Source of the DNA: a bacterium
GTDB lineage: Bacteria > Patescibacteriota > Minisyncoccia > Moranbacterales > DUUL01
DNA: 64,000 nucleotides
Direction: 5' to 3'
Assembly (NCBI GenBank): GCA_018675685.1
Contig: JABGXP010000012.1
Location: 11,596-75,595, forward strand
Numbering within the stretch: position 1 is the first letter of the stretch; each line of letters starts with the position of its first letter. Below the pieces are notes generated by a model. That model had not been told where the DNA came from and searched no databases. It saw nothing but the letters and a program-made list of their open reading frames with translations. The translations under genes and the position numbers were made by a program. Positions 14,827 through 62,795 of this stretch are shown here, one piece after another.

Positions 14827-14839
14827 ATGGAGGTTTAAT

Positions 14840-15115
14840 ATGGCTGAGTTAATTTTAGAGGCAAAAGAAGCTGCTAGCGAGTGGTTTAAGGGTAAAACAA
14901 AAGACAAAACTCTTATCCAATTAGCCATAGCCTTTGCTATGCTAGCACTGGATTCCGAAGAACATGAAGTTCGTGGAATTCTAAAAACACTCATTGAAAC
15001 ATTAAAAAGATTCAAAACAAAGGGAGCAGAAAAAATGATTAAGGCTGTTACAGAAGAGATGGAAATGCATTGGACGAATAAACCAGCTTCTAACAAACCT
15101 TTTCTCTTACTGTAA
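14840..15115 (+). CDS. Orphan 91-aa helical protein, divergent from dusB
   Basis: GGAGG SD at 14829-14833 before ATG 14840; candidate promoter TTGACA-17-TAAGGT at 14663-14691 inside dusB; hairpin downstream. Confidence 0.6.
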   Translation: MAELILEAKEAASEWFKGKTKDKTLIQLAIAFAMLALDSEEHEVRGILKTLIETLKRFKTKGAEKMIKAVTEEMEMHWTNKPASNKPFLLL

Positions 15116-15166
15116 AGAGGAATCAGAAAATGAATATGAAAACCACCAGTGGTGGTATATTCGGCA

Positions 15167-15201
15167 GGTGGCTTGGAAATATTATTTTCAAGCCACCCTT
15201 T
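15167..15201. terminator. Hairpin between the convergent orphan ORF and cysS
   Basis: GGTGGCTTG...CAAGCCACC 9-bp stem. Confidence 0.65.
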
Positions 15202-15207
15202 AGTTTT

Positions 15208-16647
15208 CTATTTTTTCATAACCACAAACCCCGCTGACTCATCTTCCACGACAAAACCTTGTTGAAGAATCTTATCTCTTAGTTTATCGGCTTTTTCAAA
15301 ATCTTTTTCTTCGCGTGCTTTTTTTCTTTGGTTTGCTAAATCAATGATTTCAGCAGGTATTTGCTCTTTTTTCTTTTCAATCAACTCCAATCCCAAGACT
15401 TTATTAATTTTATTCCAAAAGGATAGAAGCTCTTTTGTATCTGTTGAAGACAGGCCTTCTTCTGCGATAATCTGATTCACTTTCGTTATTAACTCGAATA
15501 CAACACTGAGAGCCTTTGGTGTATTTATGTCATCATCCATTGCCTCAACAAAACCTGCTTGAACTTTATCTAAATTTAAATCCTTTTGTTTTTCTGATTG
15601 AATCTCTTTTCCTTTGATTTCCTTTAAACTTTCTATTAATCGAGAAATTTTCTCCAGATTTTTTTGTGCTTGCTCCATCCCATCCCAAGTGAAGTTAATA
15701 TTAGAACGATAGTGCGAGCTGAGAATTAGGAGACGGAAAACCATAGGATCATATCCTTTTTTAATGATATCACGCAAGATATAAAAATTTCCTTTTGATT
15801 TTGACATTTTCTCTCCATTAACTAAAAGATGTCGGAGATGTAACCAAAACCTAGCAAAAGTTTGACCTGTTGCACCTTCAGATTGAGCAATTTCATTTTC
15901 GTGATGGGGGAAGATATTATCTTCTGCGCCAGTGTGGATGTCTAACGTTTCACCAAGATACTCCATACTCATTGCGCTACATTCGATGTGCCAACCTGGA
16001 TAGCCTAATGACCAAGGACTTTCCCATTTCAAAATATGCTCTTTCGGGGCCTTCAACCAAAGAGCAAAATCGTAAGCATGCTTTTTATCAGGATGCTTTT
16101 CAAGTCTTGCTCCATGCTTGAGTTCCTCAACTTTTTTGCCAGAGAGTTTCCCATAGTTTTTAAACTTTTCAACATCATAGAAAACATTTCCATTGCTTTC
16201 GTATGCCAAGCCTTTTTTGATTAAAGTCTCGATAAGATCAATCATTTGAGGGACATGTGCAGTGGCACGAGGATAGAACTGAGCTTTTTGAAAATTCATC
16301 TTCTTTGCATCTTCGAAAAACAAATCGATATAGAATTCTGCAATCTCCAAAGGAGACTTTTTTTCTTTTATTGCAGCCCTTAGCATCTTATCTTCGCCAC
16401 TATCAGCTTGATTTACTTCGTCATCAGTTAAGTGTCCAACGTCTGTAAAATTAAAAATATGACGGACCTCATACCCTTTAAATTTCAGATACCTTTTAAG
16501 TGTGTCTGCGAATGTGTATGCAGTAAGATTCCCAATATGTGCATGGTTATAAACCGTTGGTCCACAACTGTAGAACCGCACCTTTCCTTTTTCAATTGAG
16601 TTAAACTCCTCCTTCTCCCCCGAAAGGGTGTTGAATAATTTGAGCAT
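15208..16647 (-). CDS. cysS: Cysteine--tRNA ligase
   Basis: CGPTVY, HIGN, GWHIECS, FPHHENE, KMSKS. Confidence 0.98.
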
Positions 16648-16651
16648 ATAT

Positions 16652-17569
16652 TTATTTTATAAATTGGCTTAGATATTTTTCTCCTCTGTCCGGAAACACA
16701 CAAACAATATGAGCTTTTTTGTTTCCAGAAAATTCTATTTTTTTAGCAATTTCAAGTGCACCATGTAAGGCAGCAGCAGAAGAAATTCCATAAAATAAAC
16801 CTTCTTGTGTGCAAAGTTGTTTATGTATTTTATGGACCTCTAGTTCATTTCGAATTTTGAATCCTTGATCAATAACCGTGAAATCAAGAATTGGTGGGAT
16901 ATATCCCTCTAAACTTCTTGGTCCAGGAATTGATGAATTTGAACCAACTTCAACTCCAACTACTTGAATTTGATTGTTAAAGCTCTTCATTCGTTTTCCA
17001 ATCCCACTAATTGTCCCACCCGTCCCAACAGTTGCAACTAAGTGAGTGATGTTCGGGATTTGCTTTGTGATTTCCTTCCCAGTTGTTTCAAAATGAACTT
17101 GAGCACATATTTGATTCTCATATTGATTGGGCATTACTAAAGAGGTATCACTTTTTGCTAACTCCTTTATTTTTTTGATTGCAGTTTCCCCAACCCACTC
17201 TTCTTTTTTGCAGAACTCAACTTTAGTACCAAACATCTTCAAGATCGCAATTCTCTCAGGAGTAGCATTTTCGGGGAGCACTATTCTAACGGCGTATCCT
17301 TTTTTAGCAGCTATCATCGCGAGTCCAATGCCCGTATTACCCGATGACGGTTCGATTATAGTTTTGTTCTTTTTGAGGAGTTTTCTTTTTTCTAAATCAG
17401 TTATAAGGGCGAGCGCAACACGATCTTTAATTGAACCTCCAATATTTTCTCCTTCTAGCTTTGCATATATATTATACTTCTTGGTGCAAAAAGAATCCAG
17501 CTGTATTAGCGGAGTATTGCCAATTAACTTCGTCAGATCAGTTGGTTTTCTGTTTGCCATAGCCAGCAT
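16652..17569 (-). CDS. PLP-dependent cysteine synthase (CysK/CysM family)
   Basis: IGNTPL, GGSIKDR (PLP lysine), EPSSGNTGIGLA, GTGGT, PDRGEKYLS. Confidence 0.92.
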   Translation of the reverse strand: MLAMANRKPTDLTKLIGNTPLIQLDSFCTKKYNIYAKLEGENIGGSIKDRVALALITDLEKRKLLKKNKTIIEPSSGNTGIGLAMIAAKKGYAVRIVLPENATPERIAILKMFGTKVEFCKKEEWVGETAIKKIKELAKSDTSLVMPNQYENQICAQVHFETTGKEITKQIPNITHLVATVGTGGTISGIGKRMKSFNNQIQVVGVEVGSNSSIPGPRSLEGYIPPILDFTVIDQGFKIRNELEVHKIHKQLCTQEGLFYGISSAAALHGALEIAKKIEFSGNKKAHIVCVFPDRGEKYLSQFIK

Positions 17570-17587
17570 TTTTAAAATTTAGAAAAT

Positions 17588-17868
17588 AAAAAAATCTCTC
17601 GTCCTTCATGAAAAAATACTTTTCATAAAAGGGCGAGAGATTTCGCGGTTCCACCTTTCTTTCGTATTGCAGAGAGTAGTAGTCGATTTTGATATTCACC
17701 AAAATGCTAGCTAAAAAACTAAATACGCTTAATTTGAGCTATTACGGAGCAAGACCGGCGAGAGTTGTCTACGAAGTTAATCGAGGTTTTATTTTCTCGC
17801 AATCTGTCTTTTGGAAAAGACTAGCAAGGCGCACACTTCCTTGCTTTGATTTTTTTGAAAAAAAGAAC
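17588..17868 (-). ncRNA. T-box riboswitch leader (Cys) for cysteine synthase-cysS
   Basis: Minus-strand AAGGTGGAACCGCG (17657-17644) pairing with CGCCCTT; alternative terminator TCTCTCGCCCTT...AAGGACGAGAGA plus U-run; CCGTAAT stem IIA-like loop; UGC in a 5' hairpin loop. Confidence 0.88.
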
Positions 17869-17874
17869 AATCTA

Positions 17875-17903
17875 AGCATATAAGTTTTTTAATAAAATGT
17901 CAA
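17875..17903 (-). promoter_or_regulatory. Sigma70 promoter of the T-box leader
   Basis: TTGACA (17903-17898), 17 nt, TATGCT (17880-17875). Confidence 0.75.
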
Positions 17904-17975
17904 AAATTATCAACAAAAAGACCCGCGAGTTTATAACAAGCGGGCCACAAAGCTCTTTGTAGGATTAGTTTTAAA

Positions 17976-18893
17976 CTATAACCATTTTTTTCTTCGAAAG
18001 AATGTAAGTAAGGAAACAACAGTAAAAAACATCAAGCCGAGAATAAACCAGAAAGTTGTTTTTTCATGGGCAATCGAGAAGGAGTCGAATGGTGCCATTC
18101 CAAAAATCCCAACTGTTACTGAAAGTGTAAAAGTTATAAGTGAAATAGCCGTCAAAAAACGCATTGCCTCATTAATCTTATAAGAAACAAGAGCATTGTT
18201 AGTTTCTTCAAGTGATTCAATTACTTCTTTGGTATTTTCAAGAGCATTCCAGACCCGGATATTGACACCTATGAGTTCTTGAAAATATTTATTCAAACTA
18301 TCATCTAACAAGTTATAGTGTTTTTGTACAAGAGATTCAAGGATGCTTCTTTGGGGTTTGAGAGTTCTCCTAAAAGCCAAGATATCCCTTTTCACAACTG
18401 AAGTTTCGCATACCATTTCTTTTTCTTTCCCGCTAAATATCTGTTTTTCTATTTCACTTAATTGTTCATTAATATGATCAATCTTTGGGAAACAAGAATC
18501 AAGCAATTTTTCTAAAATAAAATAAAGAAGATAAGCAGTTGATTCGGACATCGCTTGATTTTTAACTACCTCATTTTCATTAAACTCTTTAATGATTGCT
18601 TTGAGCGGTATGTTATCACCAATGTGGGCTGTAAAGAGATGATCCTTGGTAATTACAATATCCAATTCTCCTGGTGTAGTAACTCTTTTGGAGCGATCAA
18701 AGAGGGGGATATGTATCACGACGTATAGACAATTACTGAATTCTTGAGCTCGTGGACGTTGTGATGGGGAAGTAAACTCATCAAGAACAAGTGGGTCTAA
18801 TTTGAAATTATCTTTCACATATAAAATATCTTGAGGTGTCGGGTCTTGAATATCAATCCAAGTTAACTTATCTCCGCTGATTTTATTCATCAT
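17976..18893 (-). CDS. corA: CorA-family Mg2+/Co2+ transporter
   Basis: WIDIQDP, INEAMRFLT, two C-terminal TMs; signature reads GMA instead of GMN. Confidence 0.85.
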   Translation of the reverse strand: MMNKISGDKLTWIDIQDPTPQDILYVKDNFKLDPLVLDEFTSPSQRPRAQEFSNCLYVVIHIPLFDRSKRVTTPGELDIVITKDHLFTAHIGDNIPLKAIIKEFNENEVVKNQAMSESTAYLLYFILEKLLDSCFPKIDHINEQLSEIEKQIFSGKEKEMVCETSVVKRDILAFRRTLKPQRSILESLVQKHYNLLDDSLNKYFQELIGVNIRVWNALENTKEVIESLEETNNALVSYKINEAMRFLTAISLITFTLSVTVGIFGMAPFDSFSIAHEKTTFWFILGLMFFTVVSLLTFFRRKKWL

Positions 18894-19032
18894 GAATTTA
18901 TCGTTTATATTTTTCTTATTTTCTCTATTCTAGCAAGAAAGTTCATTATTTCAAAGCTTTATATTTTTGAATAAAATTTCAAATACCCGTACTTGCTAAA
19001 TATCTAAAAAAGTATTTAATTAAAGCAGTGAT

Positions 19033-19314
19033 ATGATGACTAATTTGAATCAAATGAAAAAAGTCTTAATTTTTTTGATAAAACTCTATCAAAAAACTCT
19101 CTCAAGAGACACCGGCCTCCTTTCTTATTTTTATAGTGAAAGAACTTGCAGGTTTCATCCCACTTGTTCACAATACACACTGGAAGCTATTAAGCGTTTT
19201 GGTTCTCTTAAGGGTTGCTACCTAGGTCTTTCCCGAGTGCTTCGATGCCATCCTTGGAGCGAGGGAGGGATTGACGATGTTCCAGAAAAATGTGAGAATA
19301 GAAAGCACAGATAA
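19033..19314 (+). CDS. yidD: Membrane protein insertion efficiency factor YidD
   Basis: [24 protein letters not shown]. Confidence 0.93.
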
Positions 19315-19363
19315 AAAAACCACTCAACAATAGATGATTGTTAAGAATTAGCCCCAAGATTGA

Positions 19364-20881
19364 ATGTCAGAAGTTATACAACCAAAGACATTAAAAGAAT
19401 TGATCTCTCTGAGAAAAATTCCATATAGTAGTAAGAGGATCGAGCGAATCTCGAAAGCTTATGCGATGGCCAAAAAAGCACATCAAGGACAAAAGAGAAA
19501 GTCAGGGGAAGACTATTTTGTCCATTGTGTGGAAACTGCTGCAACATTAGTTAAAATGGGTCTTGGTTCAATCACGATTAGCGCGGCATTATTACATGAT
19601 GTTCCAGAAGATACAGAGATTAAACTCGAGGAAATTGAAAAGGAGTTCGGAAAAGAGGTCGCTTTCATTGTTGAGGGTGTGACAAAGTTGGGGCATGTTA
19701 GGTTAAAAGGAAGTATTGAAGAGTATTATTTGGACAACCTGCGAAAGATGTTTATGGCAATGGCGGCTGATATACGAGTGATTCTAATCAAACTCGCCGA
19801 TAGATTGCATAACATGAGGACACTAGAAGCGTTACCTGAGAATAAACGATTTAGAATTGCAAAAGAAACAATGGAAATTTTCGTTCCAATTGCAAACCGT
19901 TTCGGTATCGGTGAGGTTAAGGGAGAGTTGGAAGATTTGGCATTTAAATATATAGAGCCTGAAAAATACAAACACATAGTTGAGTTAGAAACAGAGGCGT
20001 ATAAGCTGCGTTCACAGTACGTGAAATCTGCAATCAGGGAATTAAAGGAGGAACTGAAAACGTCAGGGATAAAATTAATTGATGTTCATGGCCGAGCAAA
20101 GAGATATTTCCGACTGTATAAAAAGTTGGAGAAATATGACATGAATGTTGATAAGGTGTATGACTTAGTTGCAATTAGATTGGTTGTAACAACAGTTGCT
20201 TCTTGTTATGAAACCTTAGGAATTGTACACAAAAAGTATAAACCGCTTATTGGTAGAATTAAAGATTACATTTCTTTGCCAAAGCCAAATGGATATAAGT
20301 CGATTCACACGACGGTTTTTGGACCCGAAGGGAAAATTTTGGAAATTCAAATTAGAACAGAAAGAATGCACGACGAAGCCGAATTCGGGATTGCTGCTCA
20401 TTGGATATATACACAGGGCAGAACATGGAAAGATATAATGTTCAGAAGAGAACCAAGGGCCGCGGAAGTACCCGAGAAAGAGCTTGAGTGGGTGCAACAG
20501 CTAAAACAGTGGCATACTGAGACGGGGGGGCAAACAGATGAATTCTGGCGCTCAATTAAAATTGATTTTTTCAAAAATCATATTTTTGCCTTTACTCCCA
20601 GTGGAGATGTAATTGAATTGCCAGAAGGTGCAACACCAATTGATTTTGCTTATCGAATTCATTCAGAAGTAGGTGACAGAGCAATGGGAGCAAAAGCTAA
20701 CGGAAAAATGGTCTCTCTGGACTACATTATTCATAACGGTGATTTAATTGATGTTGTGACGTCTAAAGATAAGAAATTACCAAGTCGTGATTGGTTGAGA
20801 TTCGTAAAAACAGCGCATGCTCAGGCCAAGATAAAAAACACATTAAGAAAGGGCGGAGTGAGAGTGGTTGGCTCAAAATAA
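19364..20881 (+). CDS. rel: RelA/SpoT family (p)ppGpp synthetase/hydrolase (HD-SYNTH-TGS, no ACT)
   Basis: LLHDVPED, KLADRLHNMRT, KPNGYKSIHT, EIQIRT, TGS TPIDFAYRIH. Confidence 0.93.
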   Translation: MSEVIQPKTLKELISLRKIPYSSKRIERISKAYAMAKKAHQGQKRKSGEDYFVHCVETAATLVKMGLGSITISAALLHDVPEDTEIKLEEIEKEFGKEVAFIVEGVTKLGHVRLKGSIEEYYLDNLRKMFMAMAADIRVILIKLADRLHNMRTLEALPENKRFRIAKETMEIFVPIANRFGIGEVKGELEDLAFKYIEPEKYKHIVELETEAYKLRSQYVKSAIRELKEELKTSGIKLIDVHGRAKRYFRLYKKLEKYDMNVDKVYDLVAIRLVVTTVASCYETLGIVHKKYKPLIGRIKDYISLPKPNGYKSIHTTVFGPEGKILEIQIRTERMHDEAEFGIAAHWIYTQGRTWKDIMFRREPRAAEVPEKELEWVQQLKQWHTETGGQTDEFWRSIKIDFFKNHIFAFTPSGDVIELPEGATPIDFAYRIHSEVGDRAMGAKANGKMVSLDYIIHNGDLIDVVTSKDKKLPSRDWLRFVKTAHAQAKIKNTLRKGGVRVVGSK

Positions 20882-20957
20882 CTTGATTGACAGAGACCCT
20901 TTTTTATGTAAGAATGGAACTAAGTTGGTTCATGAGGCAACTGATATATTTTTTGAT

Positions 20958-28567: not shown

Positions 28568-28588
28568 CCCAGGGTTTTGTAAAAAGAG

Positions 28589-28625
28589 AAAGTCCCGTCT
28601 CCGTAATAGAAGATGGGACTTTTTT
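28589..28625. terminator. Bidirectional terminator
   Basis: AAAGTCCCGTCT...AGATGGGACTTTTTT. Confidence 0.75.
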
Positions 28626-28653: not shown

Positions 28654-29154
28654 TTATGCTTTAGATTTCTTTGGGTGGCACTTCACACAGCTTGTTGGTG
28701 CGGGGCCTTTCCCTTTGGGATCACCCTTTCTAATATTAAACTCTTTGTGGCATCCAATGCAGTTGGCATGGAGAGCTTCTTTGTGATACTTCACGATTTT
28801 TTCTGATTTACTGAGTTTTTCGCCTTTAACCTTTTTAGTCTCTTTGTGGCAGGTGGAACATTTTTCAGCAGAGTCTCCAATTACCAGAAACAAGGGTTGC
28901 CCCTCCGCGTCATGATGGCATTTATCGCAAGTAGCTTGATAATCCTGAGCGTGTTTTGCGTGAGTAAAAGTCACAAGTCCTTTGGCATGTCTCTTATAAT
29001 CTGGATTATTCATTTTCCAACTCGGAAGAAGTAGACCTTTCTGAGGGATTGTTGTGGCCGAATTGCTATTCGCGATGGATGGTTGATTAAAAAGCAGAAT
29101 CAATGCCAGTGCTACAAGTAGCCCGATTAGGGTAAAAGTAATTCCTTTTTTCAT
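28654..29154 (-). CDS. Tetraheme class III cytochrome c (cytochrome c3 family) with signal peptide
   Basis: VTFTHAKH distal ligands; CDKCHH, CSTCH, HANCIGCH, CVKCH; SD AAGGAGG; promoter TTGACA-17-CATAAT at 29283-29255. Confidence 0.92.
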   Translation of the reverse strand: MKKGITFTLIGLLVALALILLFNQPSIANSNSATTIPQKGLLLPSWKMNNPDYKRHAKGLVTFTHAKHAQDYQATCDKCHHDAEGQPLFLVIGDSAEKCSTCHKETKKVKGEKLSKSEKIVKYHKEALHANCIGCHKEFNIRKGDPKGKGPAPTSCVKCHPKKSKA

Positions 29155-29409
29155 GGTTTACCTCCTTGATAAGCGTCTTTACGCTTTTTAAAATGTTTAA
29201 GAAGAATAAAATTCCCATTGCAGAAGCACGTTCTTGGGAAAGTACTATAATTTTATTATGTAGTGAAGAGGGCTTTTTGTCAAGCTTAGGAGGTATTTAA
29301 AGGTTTTATCAAAAGAAAGTGATACAAGTATTATAATGAGTATTGCCAATTTCACTATTTGTGATATAATTCTTTCTGTGATAGACCTTTTTGTTTATCC
29401 AAAAAACAT

Positions 29410-44450: not shown

Positions 44451-45497
44451 ATGGGGAAGTTGAAGTTATTCGTATTATTCCTACTGTTTTGTGTGTTAGC
44501 TTTTTTAAGTTGGCGTATTTTCTATGAATTTCCTGATGAGTGGTCAATTTCAAGTGAAAAAAAATTGCCAATTGTTTATTCAGATAACTATGATATTACT
44601 TTATTTGGTTTGCAGAAATTACACTCTTTTGATTCTCAGAAATATAGTAAGATAGCAACTTATTTAACAGAAAGAGTGGGAATTTCAAAAGAAAAATTCC
44701 ATGCTCCCAAGAAAATTGGAGATGATGATTTGTTGTTAGTGCACACACAGAAATATTTAGACTCTTTGCACAATCCAGCTGTAGTTGCTGGAATAGCAGA
44801 ACTCGGGGTGTTGGCAAAAATGCCAGACTTTGTCTTACAAGAAAGATTACTTGATTCTTTGCGCTTTGCTACAAATGGAACTGTCTTGGCTGCAGAGCTT
44901 GCAATGGAAGAAGGTTGGGCAATTAATCTTGCAGGTGGATACCACCATGCAAAAGCTGATAGTGGGGGAGGATTTGGTTTCTTTGCAGATGTTCCGATAG
45001 CAATCAAGAAGCAGCAAGAGAAAAACCCAAAATTGAAAGTTTTAATTATTGATTTCGATGCACATCAAGGAAATGGAAATGAAATGATCTTCTCAGACGA
45101 CAGAAGAATTTTTATTCTAGATATATATAACCGAAATAATTACCCGCAAGACGAAGAAGCAAAGAAATATATTGATTTTGATCGACCGATAGGAAGCCTG
45201 GGCAGTGACGAATATTTGGACGTAGTGTTGGAGTCTTTACCTTTGGCTATAAAAAATGCTCAACCTGGTTTGATTGTGTACAATTCAGGGAGTGATGCTT
45301 TATTGGGAGATTCTCTCGGGAAAATGAATTTAACAAGAGAGGGTCTTATCAAAAGAGATGAGCTTGTTTTTGAATATGCCCTTAAGAGTAAGATTCCCAT
45401 TTTGATGGTGCTTTCTGGCGGGTATTCTCCAGCAAGTGCAGGGGTTATCGGGGAATCAATTGAAAATATTTTAAAAAATAGGATCAAGGTGGATTGA
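44451..45497 (+). CDS. Zn-dependent histone deacetylase family protein, class IV (HDAC11)-like, with N-terminal TM/signal
   Basis: PIVYSDNYDITLFGLQKLHSFD, GWAINLAGGYHHA, DFDAHQGNG, SGGY. Confidence 0.88.
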   Translation: MGKLKLFVLFLLFCVLAFLSWRIFYEFPDEWSISSEKKLPIVYSDNYDITLFGLQKLHSFDSQKYSKIATYLTERVGISKEKFHAPKKIGDDDLLLVHTQKYLDSLHNPAVVAGIAELGVLAKMPDFVLQERLLDSLRFATNGTVLAAELAMEEGWAINLAGGYHHAKADSGGGFGFFADVPIAIKKQQEKNPKLKVLIIDFDAHQGNGNEMIFSDDRRIFILDIYNRNNYPQDEEAKKYIDFDRPIGSLGSDEYLDVVLESLPLAIKNAQPGLIVYNSGSDALLGDSLGKMNLTREGLIKRDELVFEYALKSKIPILMVLSGGYSPASAGVIGESIENILKNRIKVD

Positions 45498-45595
45498 ACT
45501 TTTTAAATCTTGACAAAATAACTAAAAGATGTCATACTTTAAACAGTTCTAGTCAGAATATTTAAAGAATAATCAGAAAAAAGGAGTAGGAAGCC

Positions 45596-45973
45596 GTGTT
45601 TGATATAAATGAGATTGAAAGAAGAGCAACTGTAGCTAAGAAAAAGCTACTGGCAGGCATCAAAGCTTCTTTTGCAAAAAGAGAATATGAAAAGATCTTT
45701 GGGAGAGGACTCATCGACTCTTATTCGCAAAAAACTTTAATAAAAAGCTTTTCCTTTTTGTATGAAAATGAACTTAAGATGCCCACAATCAAAACCACAG
45801 GGAAGGGTAAGTATGTTATGTTGGGATTTTTCCTTCTGCAAACAGAGAAAAATTTCTTAACTGATCAAGAGCTTATTGATTTAAGAAGAGCAGGTTTCTT
45901 AGAAGAGCTTCTGGTAAAAGACTTAAGCCAAGAAGACGCTATCAATAAAGTTTTTAAAAAATATTCAAAATAA
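45596..45973 (+). CDS. Orphan hypothetical protein (standalone unit)
   Basis: Promoter TTGACA-17-CATACT 45510-45538; SD AAGGAG 45581-45586; GTG start; terminator 45990-46028. Confidence 0.7.
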   Translation: MFDINEIERRATVAKKKLLAGIKASFAKREYEKIFGRGLIDSYSQKTLIKSFSFLYENELKMPTIKTTGKGKYVMLGFFLLQTEKNFLTDQELIDLRRAGFLEELLVKDLSQEDAINKVFKKYSK

Positions 45974-45989: not shown

Positions 45990-46028
45990 AGAGGTCTTGT
46001 AAAAATTTTACAAGACCTCTGTTTTTTT
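45990..46028 (+). terminator. Terminator
   Basis: AGAGGTCTTGTAAAA-a-TTTTACAAGACCTCT followed by T-run. Confidence 0.8.
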
Positions 46029-46176
46029 ATTAAACATTAGTTTAAAGGAAAAGTCTCAAAAAGAAGGAGTCTACCCTGATTTTTCTTAGGGTTTCAGTTG
46101 ACAAACAAAAATAAAAGTGCGACGATAATTTTGGTTTTAGTTGGAGAAAATCAAAAGTAAAAAAAGGGGACATGTA

Positions 46177-46572
46177 ATGAGAGAAAAAGTGGTGCACCAA
46201 CTCTGTTCTAATGGGAGACAGGCAAGAGAGGCTTTGCTTGAAAAAATGCAAAGAAGTTACAAGGATGCTTCATTGAAAAGATTTTTTTCTTTCCATGACG
46301 ATAAATTATTTTACAGCAACTTTTCTTTTCTCTTGGAAGTTGAAGCAAACTGCATTTCTGCTACCAATGATATTGTGATGGTGGGAATGATCTTTTTTCA
46401 CAAAGCCGAAGAGCTGATTTCAAAAGTTCAGGCTGACTCAATCAAAAGAGAAGCTCGTCTAAAAGAGTTGAGTTTTCCTTTTGAAAAAGCAACATTCATC
46501 TCACCATCAAGAAAGGATTCGAGTTCAGCGATTTTGAAGCAAATATTTGCGGAGTATCCAGATGGAGATTAA
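46177..46572 (+). CDS. Orphan hypothetical protein (standalone unit)
   Basis: TTGACA at 46098; AAGGGGA before ATG 46177; terminator 46592-46628. Confidence 0.62.
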   Translation: MREKVVHQLCSNGRQAREALLEKMQRSYKDASLKRFFSFHDDKLFYSNFSFLLEVEANCISATNDIVMVGMIFFHKAEELISKVQADSIKREARLKELSFPFEKATFISPSRKDSSSAILKQIFAEYPDGD

Positions 46573-46591
46573 TCCTTCGACCAAACAAAAT

Positions 46592-46628
46592 AAAAGTCTC
46601 TTTTCAATAACATTGGAAAGAGACTTTT
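46592..46628 (+). terminator. Terminator
   Basis: AAAAGTCTCTTT...AAAGAGACTTTT. Confidence 0.7.
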
Positions 46629-46744
46629 AAATTAAGCAGTTGCTTGAATATTTCCTGTCAGAATGCTAAAATTCAATTGAAACAAAGCAGTTTCATCTTT
46701 TTTAGAAAAAGAAACTGTTTTTATAAGTATAAAAAAATAGTTAA

Positions 46745-48971: not shown

Positions 48972-48973
48972 CT

Positions 48974-53483: not shown

Positions 53484-54761
53484 ATGGATAAAATTAAAAA
53501 TAAAAATAGTTTAACCAAAAGCAAAGTAGCTACTTTGATTTTTTGCTCTTTGTTTCTATGGATTGGTAGTTCAGCCAATGCATCGGTAGCAGAAAAAAGA
53601 TATGAAACATTAGAGGATAGAAAAAAGAATTACGAACTTCAAATACTGTACAAACAAAAACAAGGAACAACGTTGGGCAATCAACTGAAAATGATGGATT
53701 TGCAAATCGATAGTTTCAAGAACGATTTGGAGATTACGAAAGAAAAAATTGCCAAAAATGAAAAAGAATTGGGGTTATTAGACCAAGAAGTTGACATATA
53801 TCAAAAAGGGCTAGATGAGAGAAGGAAAGAACTTGCAGCAATGCTTAGATTCTTCTATCAAGCAGAAAAGAATATTACAATGTCTTTTTTGGCCCAAGAC
53901 TCAGATGTGTCTGCTGTACTTAATCAATCACAATACATCGATCAGGCCTCCGGAAAAATTGATGAAATTATCATCGATACTCAAAAGAGTAAAGAAAGTC
54001 TTGAAACTAAAAAAGGAGAGGTTGAGAAAAAGAACGAAGAATTGAAAGAGCATCAAGAAACTTTTGAGGAAAGAGTTGAATACTTGGAAGGAGAAGAACA
54101 ATCCAAGAAGGTACTTTTGCAAAAAACTCAAGGACAAGAGGCACAGTACAAGAAGTTGTTGACAAGAGTTGAACAGCAGATGCAAGAGTTGATTGGTGAT
54201 CTAGATGAACTTTCTGCTGAAGTTAGAAGTGATTTGGAAAAAATCAAAAAATCAGCATCAAAGCCAACATCGGGTACTGCTTCAAAAAAATGGTATTACG
54301 CTCAAAATGACAGCAAATGGGGGAATAAAAGAATAGGACTATCAAATACTTTAATGAAGGACTACGGATGTGCCGTTACGGCAGTTTCCATGGTCATGAC
54401 TTATCACAAAGAAAAAATCACACCAGGCAGTCTCTCTGGAAAGCAAATTTTTGCAAGAGATTTAATCGTTTGGCCAGCTTCCTGGGGAGATGTCGAACTT
54501 GATTCAACGACTTGGCATGGGAATATTGATTGGAAGGAAATCAATAAGTCTATAGATAAAGACAGACCAGTAATTGTCTTTATCCGTTCAAGGACTGGTG
54601 CTGGTCATTATGTCGTTGTTCACGGAAGAGACAAAAAAGGCAAATACGTTGTCCACGATCCACTTTTTGGTGCTAATATCTATCTAGATACTTCAAGGAA
54701 GTTGGTTGGCAGGATCTACAATAGCTCCACGACAATCGATCAAATGATTATCTATAAATAA
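53484..54761 (+). CDS. Secreted coiled-coil protein with C-terminal C39-like peptidase
   Basis: Signal peptide, long coiled coil, YAQND..W, GCAVT, GHYVV, HDP. Confidence 0.8.
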   Translation: MDKIKNKNSLTKSKVATLIFCSLFLWIGSSANASVAEKRYETLEDRKKNYELQILYKQKQGTTLGNQLKMMDLQIDSFKNDLEITKEKIAKNEKELGLLDQEVDIYQKGLDERRKELAAMLRFFYQAEKNITMSFLAQDSDVSAVLNQSQYIDQASGKIDEIIIDTQKSKESLETKKGEVEKKNEELKEHQETFEERVEYLEGEEQSKKVLLQKTQGQEAQYKKLLTRVEQQMQELIGDLDELSAEVRSDLEKIKKSASKPTSGTASKKWYYAQNDSKWGNKRIGLSNTLMKDYGCAVTAVSMVMTYHKEKITPGSLSGKQIFARDLIVWPASWGDVELDSTTWHGNIDWKEINKSIDKDRPVIVFIRSRTGAGHYVVVHGRDKKGKYVVHDPLFGANIYLDTSRKLVGRIYNSSTTIDQMIIYK

Positions 54762-55089: not shown

Positions 55090-55236
55090 ACCCTGGAACG
55101 CCAAGGAGTTTTTTCTTGATAACTTTATTACTAAGAGCAAAGTTTGCGCTCGGAGCTCAATTTTGAAGCCCAGCTTATTTAAGAAGCTATTACCGCTTAT
55201 TTAAAGGTATATTAGCTTAACTTTTCCTTTTGGTAT

Positions 55237-55268
55237 CCTTAAAACGCAATTTTGAGCCTCGTTTTTTG
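55237..55268. repeat. 32-bp exact direct repeat, copy 1
   Basis: CCTTAAAACGCAATTTTGAGCCTCGTTTTTTG; similarity extends imperfectly on both sides. Confidence 0.9.
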
Positions 55269-55498
55269 CCTTATATAAGGTGATAAACGGCAATCTTTCC
55301 AATGAGTATGTTTACAAGAAAACAGGAACTCTTTCAAGACAATCATCAAAAGAATGTCATGTGAGGACAACAAAGAGAATAAACACTGCCATAGAACAAC
55401 TACAGTTAAAAGAAGGAACTCAACACCTAAGGGGGGGGTAAAAACAGAAGGAGATAGCAAAGCATACACACATCGCCATTTGTTGGGCTTATAAATTG

Positions 55499-55536: not shown

Positions 55537-55825
55537 AACTATCATTTAAATAACAATTTAGTTACTAAGTGATCTAAATCTTTCTGGAAATCTATTATTC
55601 CCTACTTCAATTTGGGTACCCATGGTTGTTTTCGACACTCTTTTAAATTACACGTAGGTGTTTTCGAAGAACATATATTTGCTCTTTCTTTTCGGTGTCT
55701 TTTGTGAAAACTTTCCTTTTTGTATTAACTGGGTAACAAAATTTCCGATAAATAGAAAAGGTGGAATTTATACCGTAAATAAAGCATTTAAAGAGGTAGG
55801 ATAGCTCAACTTTTTCTTTTTATGC

Positions 55826-55857
55826 CCTTAAAACGCAATTTTGAGCCTCGTTTTTTG
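55826..55857. repeat. 32-bp exact direct repeat, copy 2
   Basis: Identical to 55237-55268. Confidence 0.9.
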
Positions 55858-55997
55858 GCTTAAATAAGGCATAAAACAGCTGTTTATCAAATGAATTTTT
55901 ATCAATAAGAGGGGGCATTTTTAGCCCTTTTCTCACGATAGTGAACTTTTTATTTTTATGTTAAACTTAAAGAGAAAATAAGAATAAGATATTTTCC

Positions 55998-57574: not shown

Positions 57575-57601
57575 AAAAATAAAATAAATAAATTAAAAAA
57601 A

Positions 57602-58171: not shown

Positions 58172-58188
58172 TTAACGCCCTCTTTTTT

Positions 58189-58221
58189 AAAAACCCTTCG
58201 GGACTATCCGGAAGGGTTTTT
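58189..58221 (+). terminator. Terminator
   Basis: AAAAACCCTTC...GAAGGGTTTTT. Confidence 0.8.
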
Positions 58222-58334
58222 ATATTGACAAAATAACATATTCGTGATATATTTCTCCTAAGTACATTAATATCTGCAGATACTTTTAAAGCTACGATAT
58301 ATAAACCAGAAACATTTTATTTTTGGAGGTAACA

Positions 58335-58970
58335 ATGGAAAAAAGAATTGTAAAAGATGTCTATTTGAATAAGAACATCTTTGAAACCGCGAGGATTTTA
58401 CCTGTGAGTTTGCTCATCATTGCGATAAGCTATTTGTTTACAGGTGTTACTCGGTTACTACTTTACAAAGAATATCTATTCTTTGTAAAAATGGCCCTAG
58501 TGATTGAATTTGCTGTGCTCTTTCGCTTGAGATTTCTTGTTTGGAACATCTCTTCGTTAAGAAAAAAGACAGTTGTAAAATTAGGCTTACTTACAGTGGT
58601 GATGAAAATAGCTATCTTGTTAGCGATTCCTTTGTTGGAGGTTCCTGCGGTTTGTGTGATTTTACTCTCCCTGGGCGTTATTTTTTTCATTTGGTCCATC
58701 GCCCTTCTTTTATCAAAAGTAAACTTCCTATCAATAAATGGCATAACTGGGATCACGGCTCTACTTTTCTTCAGTCTCTTGATGATCTATGATGCCAGTG
58801 CTCCATTTATCGTGATGGCGGTATTCATACTGCCTGTTCTCCTCACATATACATGGATTGTTTTGATACGAAGAGATATTTTTTCTAAAACCAATTTAGT
58901 GCCTGAAGATTTCAGATTCTCTTTTGGATTTTTTCAAACAGATAACACTGGGCTTAAGACCAAGCGTTAA
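58335..58970 (+). CDS. Orphan polytopic membrane protein (standalone unit)
   Basis: Promoter TTGACA-17-TATATT with TGn extension 58225-58253; SD GGAGGT 58325-58330; about 6 TMs. Confidence 0.7.
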   Translation: MEKRIVKDVYLNKNIFETARILPVSLLIIAISYLFTGVTRLLLYKEYLFFVKMALVIEFAVLFRLRFLVWNISSLRKKTVVKLGLLTVVMKIAILLAIPLLEVPAVCVILLSLGVIFFIWSIALLLSKVNFLSINGITGITALLFFSLLMIYDASAPFIVMAVFILPVLLTYTWIVLIRRDIFSKTNLVPEDFRFSFGFFQTDNTGLKTKR

Positions 58971-58988
58971 AAAACTGCTAAAACTAAT

Positions 58989-59026
58989 AAAATCCCTCCA
59001 GAGACATTGTCTTTAGGGGGGATTTT
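58989..59026. terminator. Bidirectional terminator
   Basis: AAAATCCCTCC...GGGGGGATTTT between convergent genes. Confidence 0.7.
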
Positions 59027-59046
59027 AAACTGAAAAATGCAAATTT

Positions 59047-59346
59047 TTATTTATTTACCTTTACTTTCCTTCGAGTTAATTTAAACCAAAAATGTTTCTT
59101 CTCAACATACACGACATACCACCATCTTTGACCAAGCGGAAAACCAAGAATCACACCAAGGAAAATAAAAAATACTTGAAACCAGAAAGGAAATGAAATT
59201 TTTGCTCCCTGCAAGAACCACAGATCATTAACGGTCAGACGCCCAATAGAAATTTGTGTAACCAGATACAATTCCATCGCCTTTAAAGATGCGAAATTCG
59301 TTAAACCCACCGCTACCATTGTTGTCAAAAGATAAAATCTTTTCAT
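59047..59346 (-). CDS. Small membrane protein
   Basis: Two hydrophobic segments, GQRWWYVVYVEK tail. Confidence 0.6.
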   Translation of the reverse strand: MKRFYLLTTMVAVGLTNFASLKAMELYLVTQISIGRLTVNDLWFLQGAKISFPFWFQVFFIFLGVILGFPLGQRWWYVVYVEKKHFWFKLTRRKVKVNK

Positions 59347-59372
59347 AATTTTGTTTTTGTTTGAATGCTGAT

Positions 59373-60023
59373 TTAGGCGAACATTTTCATCTGGTATAGG
59401 ACGAAAATTAGTGTTACTAACATAAAATATATCAAAAAAGTAGCTATTTGTGAAGAGGAATATAACTTCATTGCACTACCAAGCGATTTCTTGGAGCGAA
59501 AACGAAGATTGTCGAATGAAATTGAAGAATATATTTCATCTAGAGTTAGATGACCGATATATCCAACGAAAATAGCGCTTGAAATTAAAAAATTACTTTG
59601 ATTGTCAACCTTTAATACCTTTAAAACCCACATTGCTAAGAGACCAAAAACAAGAGCTGCTGGCAGTGAATGAAAAATTCCTCGGTGATGTGTCAGCTGC
59701 ATGAAGATATACCCAGCAACAAAGCGGATTGCTACAAAAATTGCTATTGGAAAACCAATCAGAAATTTCATTTCGGGGTCTTCTTGTTGGAACAAGTAAA
59801 AAAATCCATAACCAGAGAGAGACATTGCTAGGAGACCGAAAACAATTTTAAAAGGAATTCCTTCATCGACATCCAAATCGGGCGAAAATGATCCCAACAA
59901 GGTAGCGAGGAATATCCAAGCGATCATTTCAAAACCAAGCGAAACTGAATAAATCATACAAGCCACTATAAAAGAAATTCCAAGAATGACACCCCAGGAA
60001 ATATGAGTTTTAAAATTGGCCAT
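59373..60023 (-). CDS. Membrane-bound metal-dependent hydrolase (YdjM/DUF457-like)
   Basis: MANFKTH, SPDLD, HRGIFHS, GHLTLDE. Confidence 0.85.
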   Translation of the reverse strand: MANFKTHISWGVILGISFIVACMIYSVSLGFEMIAWIFLATLLGSFSPDLDVDEGIPFKIVFGLLAMSLSGYGFFYLFQQEDPEMKFLIGFPIAIFVAIRFVAGYIFMQLTHHRGIFHSLPAALVFGLLAMWVLKVLKVDNQSNFLISSAIFVGYIGHLTLDEIYSSISFDNLRFRSKKSLGSAMKLYSSSQIATFLIYFMLVTLIFVLYQMKMFA

Positions 60024-60030
60024 AACTTTT

Positions 60031-61353
60031 CTAGTTATCCTTCTTATGAAAATCGAGAACTTTTTGATCGATAATAATATCTCTTTGTCGCAAAGGGTTT
60101 CTCAAATATATCCCTTCTAGCTTCGTGCAACGACTGAGAGCTACGTAAGTCTGACCATGTGTGAAGGCTCCATTGCCAAGATCAATGATTGCTTTTTCAA
60201 AAGTTTTCCCTTGGCTCTTATGAATGGTCACTGCCCAAGCTAGTTTGAGTGGAAGTTGAGCAAAAGAACCTTTTTCGAACTTCTCAACTTCTTTTATTTG
60301 TGAATTATATTGATAATCATAAATTTCCCAAACTGCTTTTTGAACATGGTGACTTTTTTTGCCAATTTTCACTAAAGCATAGTGCTCCCCTAGTTTTTTG
60401 ACTACTCCGATGGTGCCATTTACCCAGCGCTTTGGAGTCTCTGAATCATTTTTAACAAACATCACCTGCGCTCCAACCTTAAGTTTCAAGTTTGAATCAA
60501 TTGGGCAATCTTTTTCCCTAAAATCTCCTTTTAGTGTCGCCTTAAATGCTTGCTCTACCCCACTGACAGCCCGTAATTTAGTAGAGTTTATTTGATCCGC
60601 AATAGCATTTGTGCTAGCTAGCGTGATTGCAGGAACGCCATCATTTTCGTAAGCGCGATGTCGAGTGTTGAAAAGTTCGAAATCCTCATAGGTCAAGAGA
60701 CTCTCCCTTGTCCTGTTAAGCAATCTTTGAAAAGAGGTGTCTTTTTGACGAAAAATCTTAGTTAACTGAACTGTTTCAAAATCTGCTTCCTCGAAACAAT
60801 TGGCATTAAAAAAATAAACACCATCATATTGATCGGAAAAATATTGACGTTCTTGCCCAATCACAACCGGTGGCAATTGGAAAAGATCACCAAATGCGAT
60901 TATTTGAATTCCTCCAAAGGGTAGATTTTTTCCAGTATTCATTCTCAGTGAATGATCAATCGCATCCATAATATCAGCTCTGACCATCGAAATTTCATCG
61001 ATCACAATCGCGTCTAAATTATTGAAAATCTCTGCCTTGTGATGCAAATGTTCAACGTCATCGCGCCTAACAACCCCAAAAGGAAAAAGAAAAAATGAAT
61101 GAATCGTGCTTCCTTGAATATTAACAGCAGCAATCCCAGTCGGAGCCAGCATGACAATTTTCTTGGAAGTTGTTGCGCAAAAATGTTTGAGCAAAGTTGA
61201 TTTTCCAGTTCCAGCTTTTCCAGTGATGAAGATATTACGAGTGGTTTCCTCCATAAGACATAGAGTATCTTCGAATTCTTCTGTCATCTCAATCTTCCCT
61301 TTGCGGAATAATTTTGTCACTTTCTCTACTATTGTTTCGTCCTTCCTTTCCAT
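60031..61353 (-). CDS. Pif1/RecD-like SF1B helicase
   Basis: GKAGTGKST, APTGIAA, IDEISMV, GDLFQLPPV, AVTIHKSQG, YVALSR; start placed at ATG 61353. Confidence 0.92.
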   Translation of the reverse strand: MERKDETIVEKVTKLFRKGKIEMTEEFEDTLCLMEETTRNIFITGKAGTGKSTLLKHFCATTSKKIVMLAPTGIAAVNIQGSTIHSFFLFPFGVVRRDDVEHLHHKAEIFNNLDAIVIDEISMVRADIMDAIDHSLRMNTGKNLPFGGIQIIAFGDLFQLPPVVIGQERQYFSDQYDGVYFFNANCFEEADFETVQLTKIFRQKDTSFQRLLNRTRESLLTYEDFELFNTRHRAYENDGVPAITLASTNAIADQINSTKLRAVSGVEQAFKATLKGDFREKDCPIDSNLKLKVGAQVMFVKNDSETPKRWVNGTIGVVKKLGEHYALVKIGKKSHHVQKAVWEIYDYQYNSQIKEVEKFEKGSFAQLPLKLAWAVTIHKSQGKTFEKAIIDLGNGAFTHGQTYVALSRCTKLEGIYLRNPLRQRDIIIDQKVLDFHKKDN

Positions 61354-61366
61354 TATTTTTGAGTAT

Positions 61367-62173
61367 TTAGAAAAACAGTTTTGTTTGTTGACCCGTGTCG
61401 ATTTTCTGAATCGAAACAATTTTCACTTTTGGTGTCTCGATAAGATCTTTTCTTTCAACAATTCCTTCCAATAGCACTGAACTTTCTTGGATAAAATCAT
61501 GAAATTGGGAAATTTCTCTGTTTTTGTCTGGTAATAAGCATCTTAAAATTCGATCTTGAGTTCGAAGCCCAATATCATTATATTCTTTATTGATTCTAGT
61601 AATCTCTCCTGTCAATTCAATCACTTCTCCATTCTTCATCTCGGGAAAGACCTCCTTCTTTTGAATTGTTTCAAAAAATTTAGCCCTCTTACTTCTTTGT
61701 ATCCGTAGCTTCTTGTTTCCGTATGCAAGGAGAAATTTTGACTCAGCCCTCTCAAGTGGAGTAAGGATTTTTTGAATTCCATCTAAGAATTTTGGATTGT
61801 TACAGGCTGCTAAAACTCTTGGATTCGCTACCTTTGAGATAACTTCCTTTCTTAGATTGAAAACTTTATCAATCCCAAATTCGCCAATTGTTTCAAGCGA
61901 GTCAGTGATAATTTTTACAATAAGCGAAGTTTTGTTTCGTGTTATTCCCTTGAACTTGAATTTCAAAAACAAGCCCTTGTCATAACCAGGAAAAACCAAA
62001 ATTTGAAAATTCTTAGCTTTCGCAATTTTCGCACATTCCTTCAGACAAATTCTCATTCCCAAAATTACCTCGGCCAACTCTTTTGCATCCACACCTTCGC
62101 TGGTTGAGTATACTAATTCTATAAACTCGTTGTCTTCGGCCTTAAAAAGCTGTTTTTTGTTTGTCCTGTGCAT
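61367..62173 (-). CDS. Hypothetical protein, possible C-terminal OB-like domain and QxxLF tail
   Basis: 268-aa ORF ending 13 bp before the helicase start; ends QQTKLFF. Confidence 0.7.
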   Translation of the reverse strand: MHRTNKKQLFKAEDNEFIELVYSTSEGVDAKELAEVILGMRICLKECAKIAKAKNFQILVFPGYDKGLFLKFKFKGITRNKTSLIVKIITDSLETIGEFGIDKVFNLRKEVISKVANPRVLAACNNPKFLDGIQKILTPLERAESKFLLAYGNKKLRIQRSKRAKFFETIQKKEVFPEMKNGEVIELTGEITRINKEYNDIGLRTQDRILRCLLPDKNREISQFHDFIQESSVLLEGIVERKDLIETPKVKIVSIQKIDTGQQTKLFF

Positions 62174-62391
62174 ATCTTTTCTTTTTCTTTTATTATCTTT
62201 TTGCTCCTTTTTTCATTGTTACGCAAAAACAAAAACGATTAAAACCCCCTTTTTAAATCTCCTTAACTAGTTCATTATAGCACACAAAACTTGCTTGGTC
62301 GCACCATCCGATTGATTGACATAGCTTTATATTCGTGTTATTTTTAAAAGAGTTCCTAAGATAAACTTTTTTGATATAAGGAGAATTTCCC

Positions 62392-62694
62392 ATGGAAAAT
62401 AAAACTTATAACATCGCTGATTTTTTGCGATTCGAAGAAATTATTGTGAAACATCTTGATAATGGTGGCAAGATCGGAAATACTGCTCTTTCTGAAACCG
62501 AAACACTGCTGCACAAAACGCTCGGAACTGTTGGATATAGAAAGATTACTAAGTCAGCAAATAAAGTGCTGCCTACTACATTATTTCCTTCAATGAATTA
62601 TCTAAAGAGTATTTGCATCTTCATAAAAGAATGGACCGAGCTTATGATCGAAGAAGGGATCATTGAGGGTCAAGCGGATCTCAAAGCTACATAG
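62392..62694 (+). CDS. Orphan hypothetical protein (standalone unit)
   Basis: Promoter TTGACA-17-TATTTT with TGn extension 62316-62344; SD AAGGAG 62378-62383; terminator 62754-62795. Confidence 0.68.
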   Translation: MENKTYNIADFLRFEEIIVKHLDNGGKIGNTALSETETLLHKTLGTVGYRKITKSANKVLPTTLFPSMNYLKSICIFIKEWTELMIEEGIIEGQADLKAT

Positions 62695-62753
62695 ATGCCA
62701 ATCAAAAAAGGTTGTAAATGAAAACTGATATTAAAAAACTATTGTTTAAAAAT

Positions 62754-62795
62754 AAGTCTGCGTGATATTAATACATATTGCGCAGACTTTTTTTT
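62754..62795. terminator. Terminator between convergent genes
   Basis: AAGTCTGCG...CGCAGACTTTTTTTT. Confidence 0.75.

Follow-up and report, generated by a model that had tools for sequence, protein, structure and literature searches.

A genome-wide class of Shine-Dalgarno-led accessory genes in a Patescibacteria-like bacterium, and its possible translation by a host

The window studied here is a 64,000-nucleotide stretch of DNA (C3:11596-75595) from G000, a genome of 1.05 Mb and 36% GC in 22 contigs with a rated completeness of 96%. Its small size, missing pathways and VirB4 locus suggest a Patescibacteria-like organism of the candidate phyla radiation (CPR) type. An initial annotation had set the window's core genes, which lack a Shine-Dalgarno (SD) sequence, against six isolated genes at 14840, 29154, 45596, 46177, 58335 and 62392, each described as having an SD, its own upstream TTGACA and a downstream hairpin. 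The two expression grammars are real, and they extend across the whole genome. The SD-led class comprises about 9% of genes, some 90 accessory genes, and fits no known family. Judged from sequence, the likeliest reading, though an unproven one, is that these genes are addressed to the ribosomes of a host bacterium; how they would be expressed and delivered, and to which host, is inferred.

We called genes with a custom caller whose start model was trained without SD information, which yielded 996 genes in G000, and counted an SD wherever at least 5 nt matched. Orthology was assigned against 1.16 Mb of a genome from the same genus (G001) and 1.30 Mb of one from the same family (G010). Leaving out 10 genes at contig ends, 986 were classed: core genes have reciprocal best hits in both relatives, no-hit genes have no match in G001 or G010, and the rest are intermediate. 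SDs precede 64/177 no-hit genes, 22/288 intermediate genes and 10/521 core genes (p 3e-32), or 96/996 overall, so that SD presence correlates with orphan status genome-wide, a check that the initial annotation had proposed. The split holds with SD-blind starts (52/177 no-hit versus 7/521 core genes) and is repeated in G001 (40/213 lineage-specific versus 10/514 core) and G010 (58/374 versus 12/504). A separate test of pairing energy, with a threshold of -7 kcal/mol or stronger, selected 72/177 no-hit and 17/521 core genes. SDs of at least 6 nt occur at 75/996 called starts, compared with 1.1% of 16,960 internal ATGs, and 4-nt SDs are depleted at called starts (1.1% versus 4.0% in the control). 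The distribution of SD lengths is therefore bimodal.

The eight core genes originally named in the window (proS, mreB, dnaB, recR, rel, gltX, cysS and valS) all lack an SD under this rule, and so do all 25 called genes on the contig that carries the S10-spc ribosomal-protein operon. Because the ribosomal-protein, EF-Tu and DnaK genes are SD-less, the earlier suggestion of a highly expressed regulon fails as a rule for the class. The rule runs one way only: SD-led genes are mostly accessory, yet 113/177 no-hit genes are SD-less, among them 12369, 44451, 57602 and 61367 in the window. Among the ten SD-led core genes, four keep their SD in all three genomes (G000, G001 and G010), and several of the other six resemble start mis-calls. 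The four are rpsU (G000:C14:19608; L150:15969-16223), HU (G000:C9:28062), a type IV pilin (C21:66255) and an 89-aa membrane protein (C9:77198), and none has the TTGACA or the leader motif of the accessory class. The rpsU SD reads AAGGAGGT in G000 and GGAGGT in both relatives; its conservation, as in Flavobacteriales, suggests that bS21 may regulate its own synthesis in this CPR group.

SD-led accessory genes also share transcription signals. When only genes with 80 bp or more of upstream sequence are counted, TTGACA precedes 27/53 SD-led no-hit genes, 3/58 SD-less no-hit genes and 31/222 core genes. Terminator-like hairpins lie downstream of 47/62 SD-led no-hit, 41/104 SD-less no-hit and 141/502 core genes. 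The class promoter has the consensus TTGACAAAA...TGnTATAAT, and its spacer opens with an A-tract (AAA directly after TTGACA in 19/35 cases versus 11/55). The AGT(A/T)C word previously noticed after the -10 in the window proved to be class-wide: as RGT(A/T)C(A/C/T)T it is present in 34/72 leaders of SD-led accessory genes and in 20/404 of the others, made up of 9/222 core and 11/182 SD-less accessory leaders. It is confined to the sense strand (34 sense copies, reverse copies in 3/72) and recurs in the class leaders of G001 (19/42) and G010 (9/43). Most copies lie 6-14 nt after the -10 at a variable distance, as would fit an element acting in RNA. Promoter, motif and terminator occur together in 16/72 SD-led accessory genes versus 3/404 SD-less genes. 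The idea of a distinct, co-formatted class with a shared and possibly boxA-like element is thus upheld genome-wide and in the relatives. Two promoter words proposed at the same time, TTGACAAAATAAC (5 copies in the genome) and ATATTCGTG (8 copies), do not extend across the class. AACATTT, a leader word common to two cytochrome genes, is not enriched in the class either, and an all-against-all comparison of class upstream regions revealed no shared block or border sequence.

The leader motif resembles boxA. G[CT]TCTTT appears in 10/72, 10/42 and 11/43 class leaders of G000, G001 and G010, respectively. Three Desulfobacterota rrn leaders read TG(A/T)TCTTTGAAAAC, and the rrn leader of G000 itself has TGAACTTTGAAAAT; a few class leaders come near a full match to the Desulfobacterota form or to the rrn consensus GYTCTTTAANA. 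Among promoter-like sites at Desulfobacterota aldolase loci (75/80 loci, with 5 left out for other or unclear taxa), 3/110 carry the leader motif, compared with a shuffle mean of 6.2. Because Desulfobacterota promoters lack it, the motif is not a residue of a donor genome.

Many SD-led genes are old orthologues whose rate of evolution is roughly double that of neighbouring genes. Twelve genus-only orthologue pairs carry an SD in G000 as well as in G001; all of them are syntenic, and their median identity is 34%, compared with 66% for 135 SD-less genus-only pairs. SD and reading frame persist at the same locus while the proteins fall to 22-49% identity. The class also keeps a codon composition of its own. 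Irrespective of strand, GC at fourfold sites is 0.333/0.335 (G000/G001) in the SD pairs and 0.254/0.214 in core genes, whereas SD-less accessory genes of equal age match the core in both codon use and rate. In G010 the shift runs the other way, with a GC content at third codon positions (GC3) of 0.456 in the class and 0.498 in the core. Fourfold sites differ between G000 and G001 at 0.54-0.64, which makes dN/dS unusable; among 40 of the 57 strain variants, 3/6 are non-synonymous in SD genes and 5/26 in SD-less genes, counts too sparse to interpret. There is turnover as well: of 46 syntenic slots, 20 have no gene in G001, and an SD-led gene occupies 17 of the remaining 26. Class genes are scattered between core genes as 39 singletons, 16 pairs and 4 triples. 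Being old, syntenic, fast-evolving and distinct in codon composition, these many orthologues are not fresh imports.

Most of the SD-led genes that we scanned against Pfam (81 of the 91 outside the window) have no family. The recognisable cargo includes nucleotide metabolism (PurL, PurM, PurE, a PurB-like lyase, a glutamine amidotransferase, PyrE, PyrF and a uracil permease), lipid enzymes of the CdsA, PgsA and PlsC families, glycolytic GAPDH and class II aldolase, a GGDEF protein, an OmpA lipoprotein, a MotA/ExbB protein and a PEP-CTERM protein. In the relatives, 92 SD-led accessory genes of at least 100 aa add PurC, PurN, PurL, FabA-like, GGDEF and cell-wall hydrolase domains. We found no match in G000 for PurD, PurH or FabF, none for HemB in three genomes, and neither the Ccm/Ccs family PF01578 nor an exosortase in five genomes. 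Part of the recognisable cargo (cytochrome c3, OmpA, PEP-CTERM and the partial purine pathway) would thus need machinery that was not found in G000. The PEP-CTERM proteins form a tandem pair at G000:C5:12090 and 13130 (L172), and G001, too, has one. Hydrophobic N-termini are present in 37% of class members, and 29/30 proteins tested have no PHROG match. A protein of the Fe-only hydrogenase large-subunit family at G000:C9:39148 (L147:301-1890) is conserved in G001 and G010.

For three members, the cytochrome c3, the aldolase and OmpA, the nearest named relatives are Desulfobacterota. The cytochrome matches PF02085 (E 2.5e-12) with four CxxCH motifs (CDKCH, CSTCH, CIGCH and CVKCH) and shares 60-71% identity with Desulfobacula-type proteins across the heme domain; most of its named relatives belong to Desulfobacula and Desulfobacteraceae. 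One distant homologue exists among 60 relatives, with a similar leader word and a weak SD. Contigs from three studies, one perhaps of the same source DNA, span the gene together with core neighbours, ruling out mis-assembly. The best 80 loci for the class II fructose-bisphosphate aldolase are nearly all Desulfobacterota or Deltaproteobacteria, at 61-66% identity. Its branch length is 1.06, where the median is 0.15, and the protein retains 133/141 invariant columns; since this quick tree (45 of 74 hits) has no outgroup, it shows a long branch rather than nesting. For OmpA, three of four taxon-named matches are Desulfobacterota.

We favour, at slightly less than even confidence, the reading that these are host-directed genes, translated by host ribosomes after delivery through a type IV secretion system (T4SS), with mRNA as the likelier carrier. 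The probable host is a sulfate reducer from the Desulfobacterota. Each unit would be transcribed from its strong promoter by the RNA polymerase of the cell itself, and NusB/S10 would load on the leader motif, keeping the transcript free of the cell's own ribosomes. With Rho absent from the cell, the transcript would escape early cutting. The mRNA would then pass through the conjugation-type T4SS (transfer of chromosomal DNA for transcription by the host is less likely), and host ribosomes would read the SD. The products would be enzymes for purines, pyrimidines and phospholipids, together with diguanylate cyclases, envelope proteins, a cytochrome and numerous small orphans, which might act in the manner of phage auxiliary genes; their fast evolution would reflect conflict with the host. 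Some parts of this machinery can be located: G000 has VirD4-like proteins and an SD-less VirB4 locus, and it has NusB and lacks Rho, which is present in both Desulfobacterota genomes tested. A boxA in a 5' untranslated region represses translation of suhB in E. coli, acting up to 100 nt from the SD (PMC5725501), and T4SSs are widespread in Patescibacteria, mostly without a relaxase (109 relaxases in 103 genomes; PMC12102498). Formatting for a host's SD-dependent machinery, the speculative option of the initial annotation, is thereby the best supported of those it offered, though still inferred from sequence.

An argument for a foreign ribosome comes from relatives whose 16S tail has changed. 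In G000 the 16S 3' end on contig C21, which the initial annotation had suggested inspecting, is intact and reads GGATCACCTCCTTT; across Parcubacteria an anti-SD motif is reported in only 48% (PMC9297842). We searched 111 genomes of the taxonomic class for 16S ends without CCTCC and found eight; most of the others keep the motif or have an unassembled end, two states that the search does not distinguish. In the eight altered-tail genomes, AGGAGGT-N3-8-ATG occurs 141 times versus 50 in a backwards control, with an excess in seven. The five with the most divergent tails, where pairing is -0.2 to -4.2 kcal/mol compared with -10.7 kcal/mol in G000, show 77 versus 32. In four comparison genomes the counts are 111 versus 69; G000 and G043 have a visible intact tail, and for G001 and G010 no tail was visible. 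The backwards control agrees with the non-start background in three gene-called genomes (11/15, 16/19 and 17/13), and 50 of the 80 listed rows, which come from five of the eight genomes, fall in a spacer peak at 4-5 nt. Sites that combine leader motif, SD and ATG number 38 versus 4 in the eight genomes and 11 versus 2 in the five. Their density per base is about twice that in three Desulfobacterota genomes rich in SDs, where 41 such sites occur in 12.7 Mb, a control that does not separate the motif from the SD. An SD that persists where the 16S tail lacks CCTCC is what a foreign ribosome would predict and the cell's own would not, so the class was likely written for a host ribosome.

Two side observations concern the rRNA loci. 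Genomes G110, G140 and G167, of one genus, end in the same 16S tail, CACTTCTT. This tail pairs with AGGAGGU by way of two G-U wobbles, and SD sites led by GTTCTTT are numerous in the three genomes. In G000 the 16S gene is followed at C21:250-600 by a spacer and a protein gene, not by 23S, and tRNA-Ile and tRNA-Ala lie elsewhere (C3:4896-5065); as no 23S motif was found in G000, its rRNA genes look unlinked or unassembled.

Several points weigh against host translation. We know of no precedent for mRNA passing between bacteria through a T4SS. The ribosome of G000 itself very likely reads SDs at times, because its anti-SD is intact and rpsU, HU, the pilin and the 89-aa protein keep theirs. The anti-SD-loss test consists of pattern counts in eight related metagenome-assembled genomes (MAGs) without gene calls; 3/8 altered tails retain wobble pairing (-5.9 kcal/mol), in one genome (G094) the excess is missing (5 versus 10), and the counts might be distorted by the rRNA of MAGs or by genes of mobile elements. 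About half of the leader-motif copies read GTAC, departing from the boxA core, and the share of class genes with promoter, motif and terminator together is low. Scattered genes are unlike transferred DNA (T-DNA). PurM, PurE and UraA show no greater affinity to Desulfobacterota than to the other phyla tested: PurM shares 43-49% identity with Desulfobacterota proteins and also 49% with one from an Anaerolineales genome and 47% with one from a Spirochaetota genome. Finally, with completeness at 96%, single gene absences in G000 are not proof.

An alternative that keeps the class at home is less likely in our view, and is the likeliest of the rivals. The anti-SD would be hidden as in Bacteroidia and freed in ribosomes that lack bS21, for example on host attachment; the proteins would be made at home for use at the host interface or as T4SS effectors, and the boxA-like motif would add Nus control. 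The intact anti-SD fits, and the strong rpsU SD in all three genomes matches autoregulation in Flavobacterium (PMC9976891), but the four SD-led core genes carry neither the leader motif nor TTGACA, and SD-before-ATG is enriched even where the 16S tail cannot pair. HU and the pilin are SD-led too, and NusB is present. Delivery of proteins by T4SSs is well established, and the hydrophobic N-termini seen in part of the class suit such a role. A C-terminal charge signal of the kind usual in T4SS protein substrates was not found. This alternative leaves unexplained both a codon composition decoupled from that of the genome and cargo that consists of polytopic membrane proteins, among them the uracil permease and the CdsA/PgsA-family proteins.

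It is improbable that the class consists of transfer relics, that is, host genes taken up by competence or in moron-like cassettes that kept donor signals under weak selection, with no delivery. The Desulfobacterota-like cytochrome c3, aldolase and OmpA would be expected on this account, as would donors that use SDs (63/74 donor aldolase genes), codon use nearer to low-GC Desulfobacterota than that of the core, and the patchy presence seen in the cytochrome and the empty G001 slots. Weak selection, however, sits poorly with SDs and frames that outlast protein identity at the same locus and with an aldolase that keeps nearly all its invariant columns on so long a branch. Donors do not have the leader motif, and SD-less accessory genes of equal age look core-like in codon use and rate. 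None of the six proteins in the window matched a PHROG family, and the 14840 protein had no relative on viral contigs. The modular acquired cassettes of the initial annotation may therefore describe some members; the syntenic SD pairs and the lack of the motif in Desulfobacterota promoters speak against them as a description of the class.

Still less probable, and weighed apart from delivery as mRNA, is a DNA variant of host translation, in which chromosome fragments enter the host and its polymerase, Nus factors and ribosomes express genes with portable signals that the motif shields from Rho: the near-consensus promoters, the near matches of some class leaders to the Desulfobacterota rrn boxA (the rrn leader of G000 having TGAACTTTGAAAAT), Rho in the two Desulfobacterota genomes tested, and a T4SS homologous to conjugation machinery (PMC12102498) would suit it, but relaxases are rare in Patescibacteria (PMC12102498) and the genes are dispersed without a common border sequence. 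Scattering fits mRNA better than a T-DNA-like segment, whereas consensus promoters and host Rho fit DNA.

Within the window, five of the six genes have a clear SD, and the sixth, 46177, has only AAGGGGA, which does not count under the rule. All six have an upstream TTGACA (14663, 29283 on the minus strand, 45510, 46098, 58225 and 62316) and a downstream hairpin, as first described. TTGACA also occurs upstream of core proS, gltX, cysK and a tRNA. Pfam recognises only the cytochrome c3, leaving the other five without a match as anticipated. Overall, the initial interpretation is partly supported.

The 14840 gene (14829-15115, plus strand; ORF 14840-15115) combines an SD, GGAGGT with a spacer of 5, with a 91-aa genus-restricted four-helix protein. 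It starts head to head with SD-less dus, a tRNA dihydrouridine synthase (13858-14826, minus strand; PF01207), 13 bp away, and its promoter-like site, TTGACA-17 bp-TAAGGT (14663-14691, plus strand), lies inside dus on the antisense strand. TTGACAA and TAnnnT at 17 bp are conserved there in all three aligned lineages (G000, G001 and L262). The positional orthologue in G001 has the same SD and the same MAEL start, and a third lineage has AAAGGAGGTG in this slot. Positional orthologues are 32-43% identical next to a dus at 80%. The family is present in 4/4 genomes of the genus and in 0/23 other genomes of the family searched, and a profile search retrieved 4 proteins among 1.84 billion. The ESM Atlas gave no usable match for the 14840 or 46177 proteins. 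A structure model built from 4 sequences has four helices (pLDDT 73) and no Foldseek match at E 0.001; the best VIA hit (Z 6.8) reflects a common helical arrangement. Across 13858-15115, any dus leader necessarily runs antisense through the 14840 gene, and a minus-strand frame is open across that gene. A terminator-like hairpin (15166-15198) separates it from cysS.

The cytochrome gene (28654-29167, minus strand) encodes a class III tetraheme protein of 166 aa with an N-terminal hydrophobic stretch, and its SD is AAGGAGGT with a spacer of 5. Its promoter-like TTGACA site and AGTACTT leader motif lie at 29240-29283 and its hairpin at 28581-28622, both on the minus strand. The remaining units are on the plus strand. 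The 45596 gene (45581-45973; ORF 45596-45973) has a promoter-like TTGACA-17 bp-CATACT and the leader word AGTTCTA (45510-45551), an SD, AAGGAG, with a spacer of 9, a GTG start and a hairpin (45990-46020); a search with its 125-aa orphan protein matched only itself among 23 candidates. It is followed by the 46177 unit (46098-46629), the weakest of the six, with TTGACA, a -10 that is imperfect as the initial annotation had cautioned, the SD-like AAGGGGA at 46164-46170, a 131-aa orphan (46177-46572) and a hairpin (46591-46629).

An upstream insulating hairpin opens the 58335 unit (58188-58267), followed by TTGACA-17 bp-TATATT (58225-58253) and the motif AGTACAT (58261-58267). The gene itself (58325-59026, including a terminator-like hairpin) has the SD GGAGGT with a spacer of 4 and encodes a 211-aa membrane protein (58335-58970), with syntenic orthologues in two of three congeners: G001 (22% identical, SD GAGGTG) and G003. 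The first 18 nt of its promoter are identical to the promoter of an unrelated SD-led gene at 54337 of G000:C13, possibly through promoter reuse. At the last unit, TTGACA-17 bp-TATTTT and AGTTCCT (62316-62357) precede the 62392 gene (62378-62790), which comprises an SD, AAGGAG, with a spacer of 8, a 100-aa orphan (62392-62694) and a hairpin common to it and a convergent gene. Two neighbouring features were also recorded. The SD-less gene at 44451-45497 encodes a protein of the histone deacetylase family that has a membrane anchor at its N-terminus; G002 and G003 have it too, and it was not found in G001. Direct repeats of 101 nt (55205-55305 and 55794-55894; 79% identical), pieces of which match three congeners at the same place, bound 589 bp that are absent from one strain contig; with an inner 17-bp inverted repeat, the segment looks like a small deletable element.

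Taking these results together, we propose, a shade more tentatively than host translation itself, a dispersed, phage-like infection programme in Patescibacteria, in which dozens of chromosomal genes with a boxA-like 5' tag and a strong SD would leave through the T4SS in the form of nucleic acid, to be translated on the ribosomes of the host. If true, it would redirect the nucleotide, lipid, envelope and cyclic di-GMP metabolism of the host; the grammar would name candidate effectors, and codon and sequence affinities would indicate the host from the genome alone. According to PMC12102498, it is an open question by what means Patescibacteria exploit their hosts and what passes through their T4SSs, which are essential and usually lack a relaxase. 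The SD signature offers a testable list of candidate cargo and a host prediction for uncultured lineages. It also carries a warning, since the partial purine, lipid and cytochrome pathways of CPR genomes may not reflect the metabolism of the CPR cell itself. Marine and seawater sequencing runs contain DNA near-identical to G000, and those listed include no RNA run. In the full-text literature, with subscription journals mostly uncovered and supplements excluded, we found no paper that describes, for Patescibacteria, a class of SD-led genes, boxA motifs in leaders or translation by a host. The text of PMC12455944 that was available treats gene transfer into Patescibacteria and mentions neither SDs nor promoters; PMC10783764 does not mention Patescibacteria, and the 3-bp start element described in PMC12641261 differs from the class leader motif.

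The closest known parallel in translation is Bacteroidia. Like G000, Flavobacterium johnsoniae combines SD-less core genes with an intact anti-SD and a strong, conserved rpsU SD (PMC7797042, PMC9976891). There rpsU is the notable SD-led gene, whereas G000 has about 90 SD-led accessory genes with a promoter, leader motif and terminator, and the G000 pattern, unlike that of Bacteroidia, persists in relatives that have lost the anti-SD. The sequestering residues of Bacteroidia lie in bS21 (Tyr54), bS18 and bS6; in G000 the bS21 and bS18 sequences were read out, and bS6 was not located. If bS21-less ribosomes of the cell's own read the class, it would be a specialised-ribosome regulon far larger than the rpsU case.

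In its leader, the class recalls the boxA/Nus system of E. coli suhB (PMC5725501), with a short G-Y-T-C-T-T-like word at a variable distance and NusB present. The position also agrees, early in the transcript, on the sense strand and flexible, and NusB-S10 binding is putative. Unlike the boxA described there, the motif is degenerate, half of its copies reading GTAC, and it marks dozens of genes rather than 0-7 per genome in a cell without Rho. The cytochrome c3 shares its four CxxCH with the class III proteins of Desulfobacteraceae (PF02085), and unlike theirs it resides in a genome without a detected hemB or cytochrome c maturation family.

Agrobacterium T-DNA (PMC3355731) likewise consists of bacterial genes with the expression signals of a recipient beside a VirB4/VirD4-type T4SS, and G000 has both VirB4 and a coupling protein. 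Here the recipient would be a bacterium, the cargo is not clustered between border repeats, and delivery is putative. Phage morons (PMC3594210) are self-contained transcription units between conserved genes, too, and the class shares with them its own promoter and terminator. It differs in being chromosomal in a cellular organism, dispersed, vertically inherited within the genus and without a phage-family or viral-contig match, with neither prophage context nor recent spread.

Phage auxiliary metabolic genes are cargo that completes host pathways, and the G000 class likewise contains nucleotide, lipid, glycolytic and signalling cargo. If host ribosomes read it, the class would be a cell-to-cell analogue, between bacteria, of phage infection or T-DNA.

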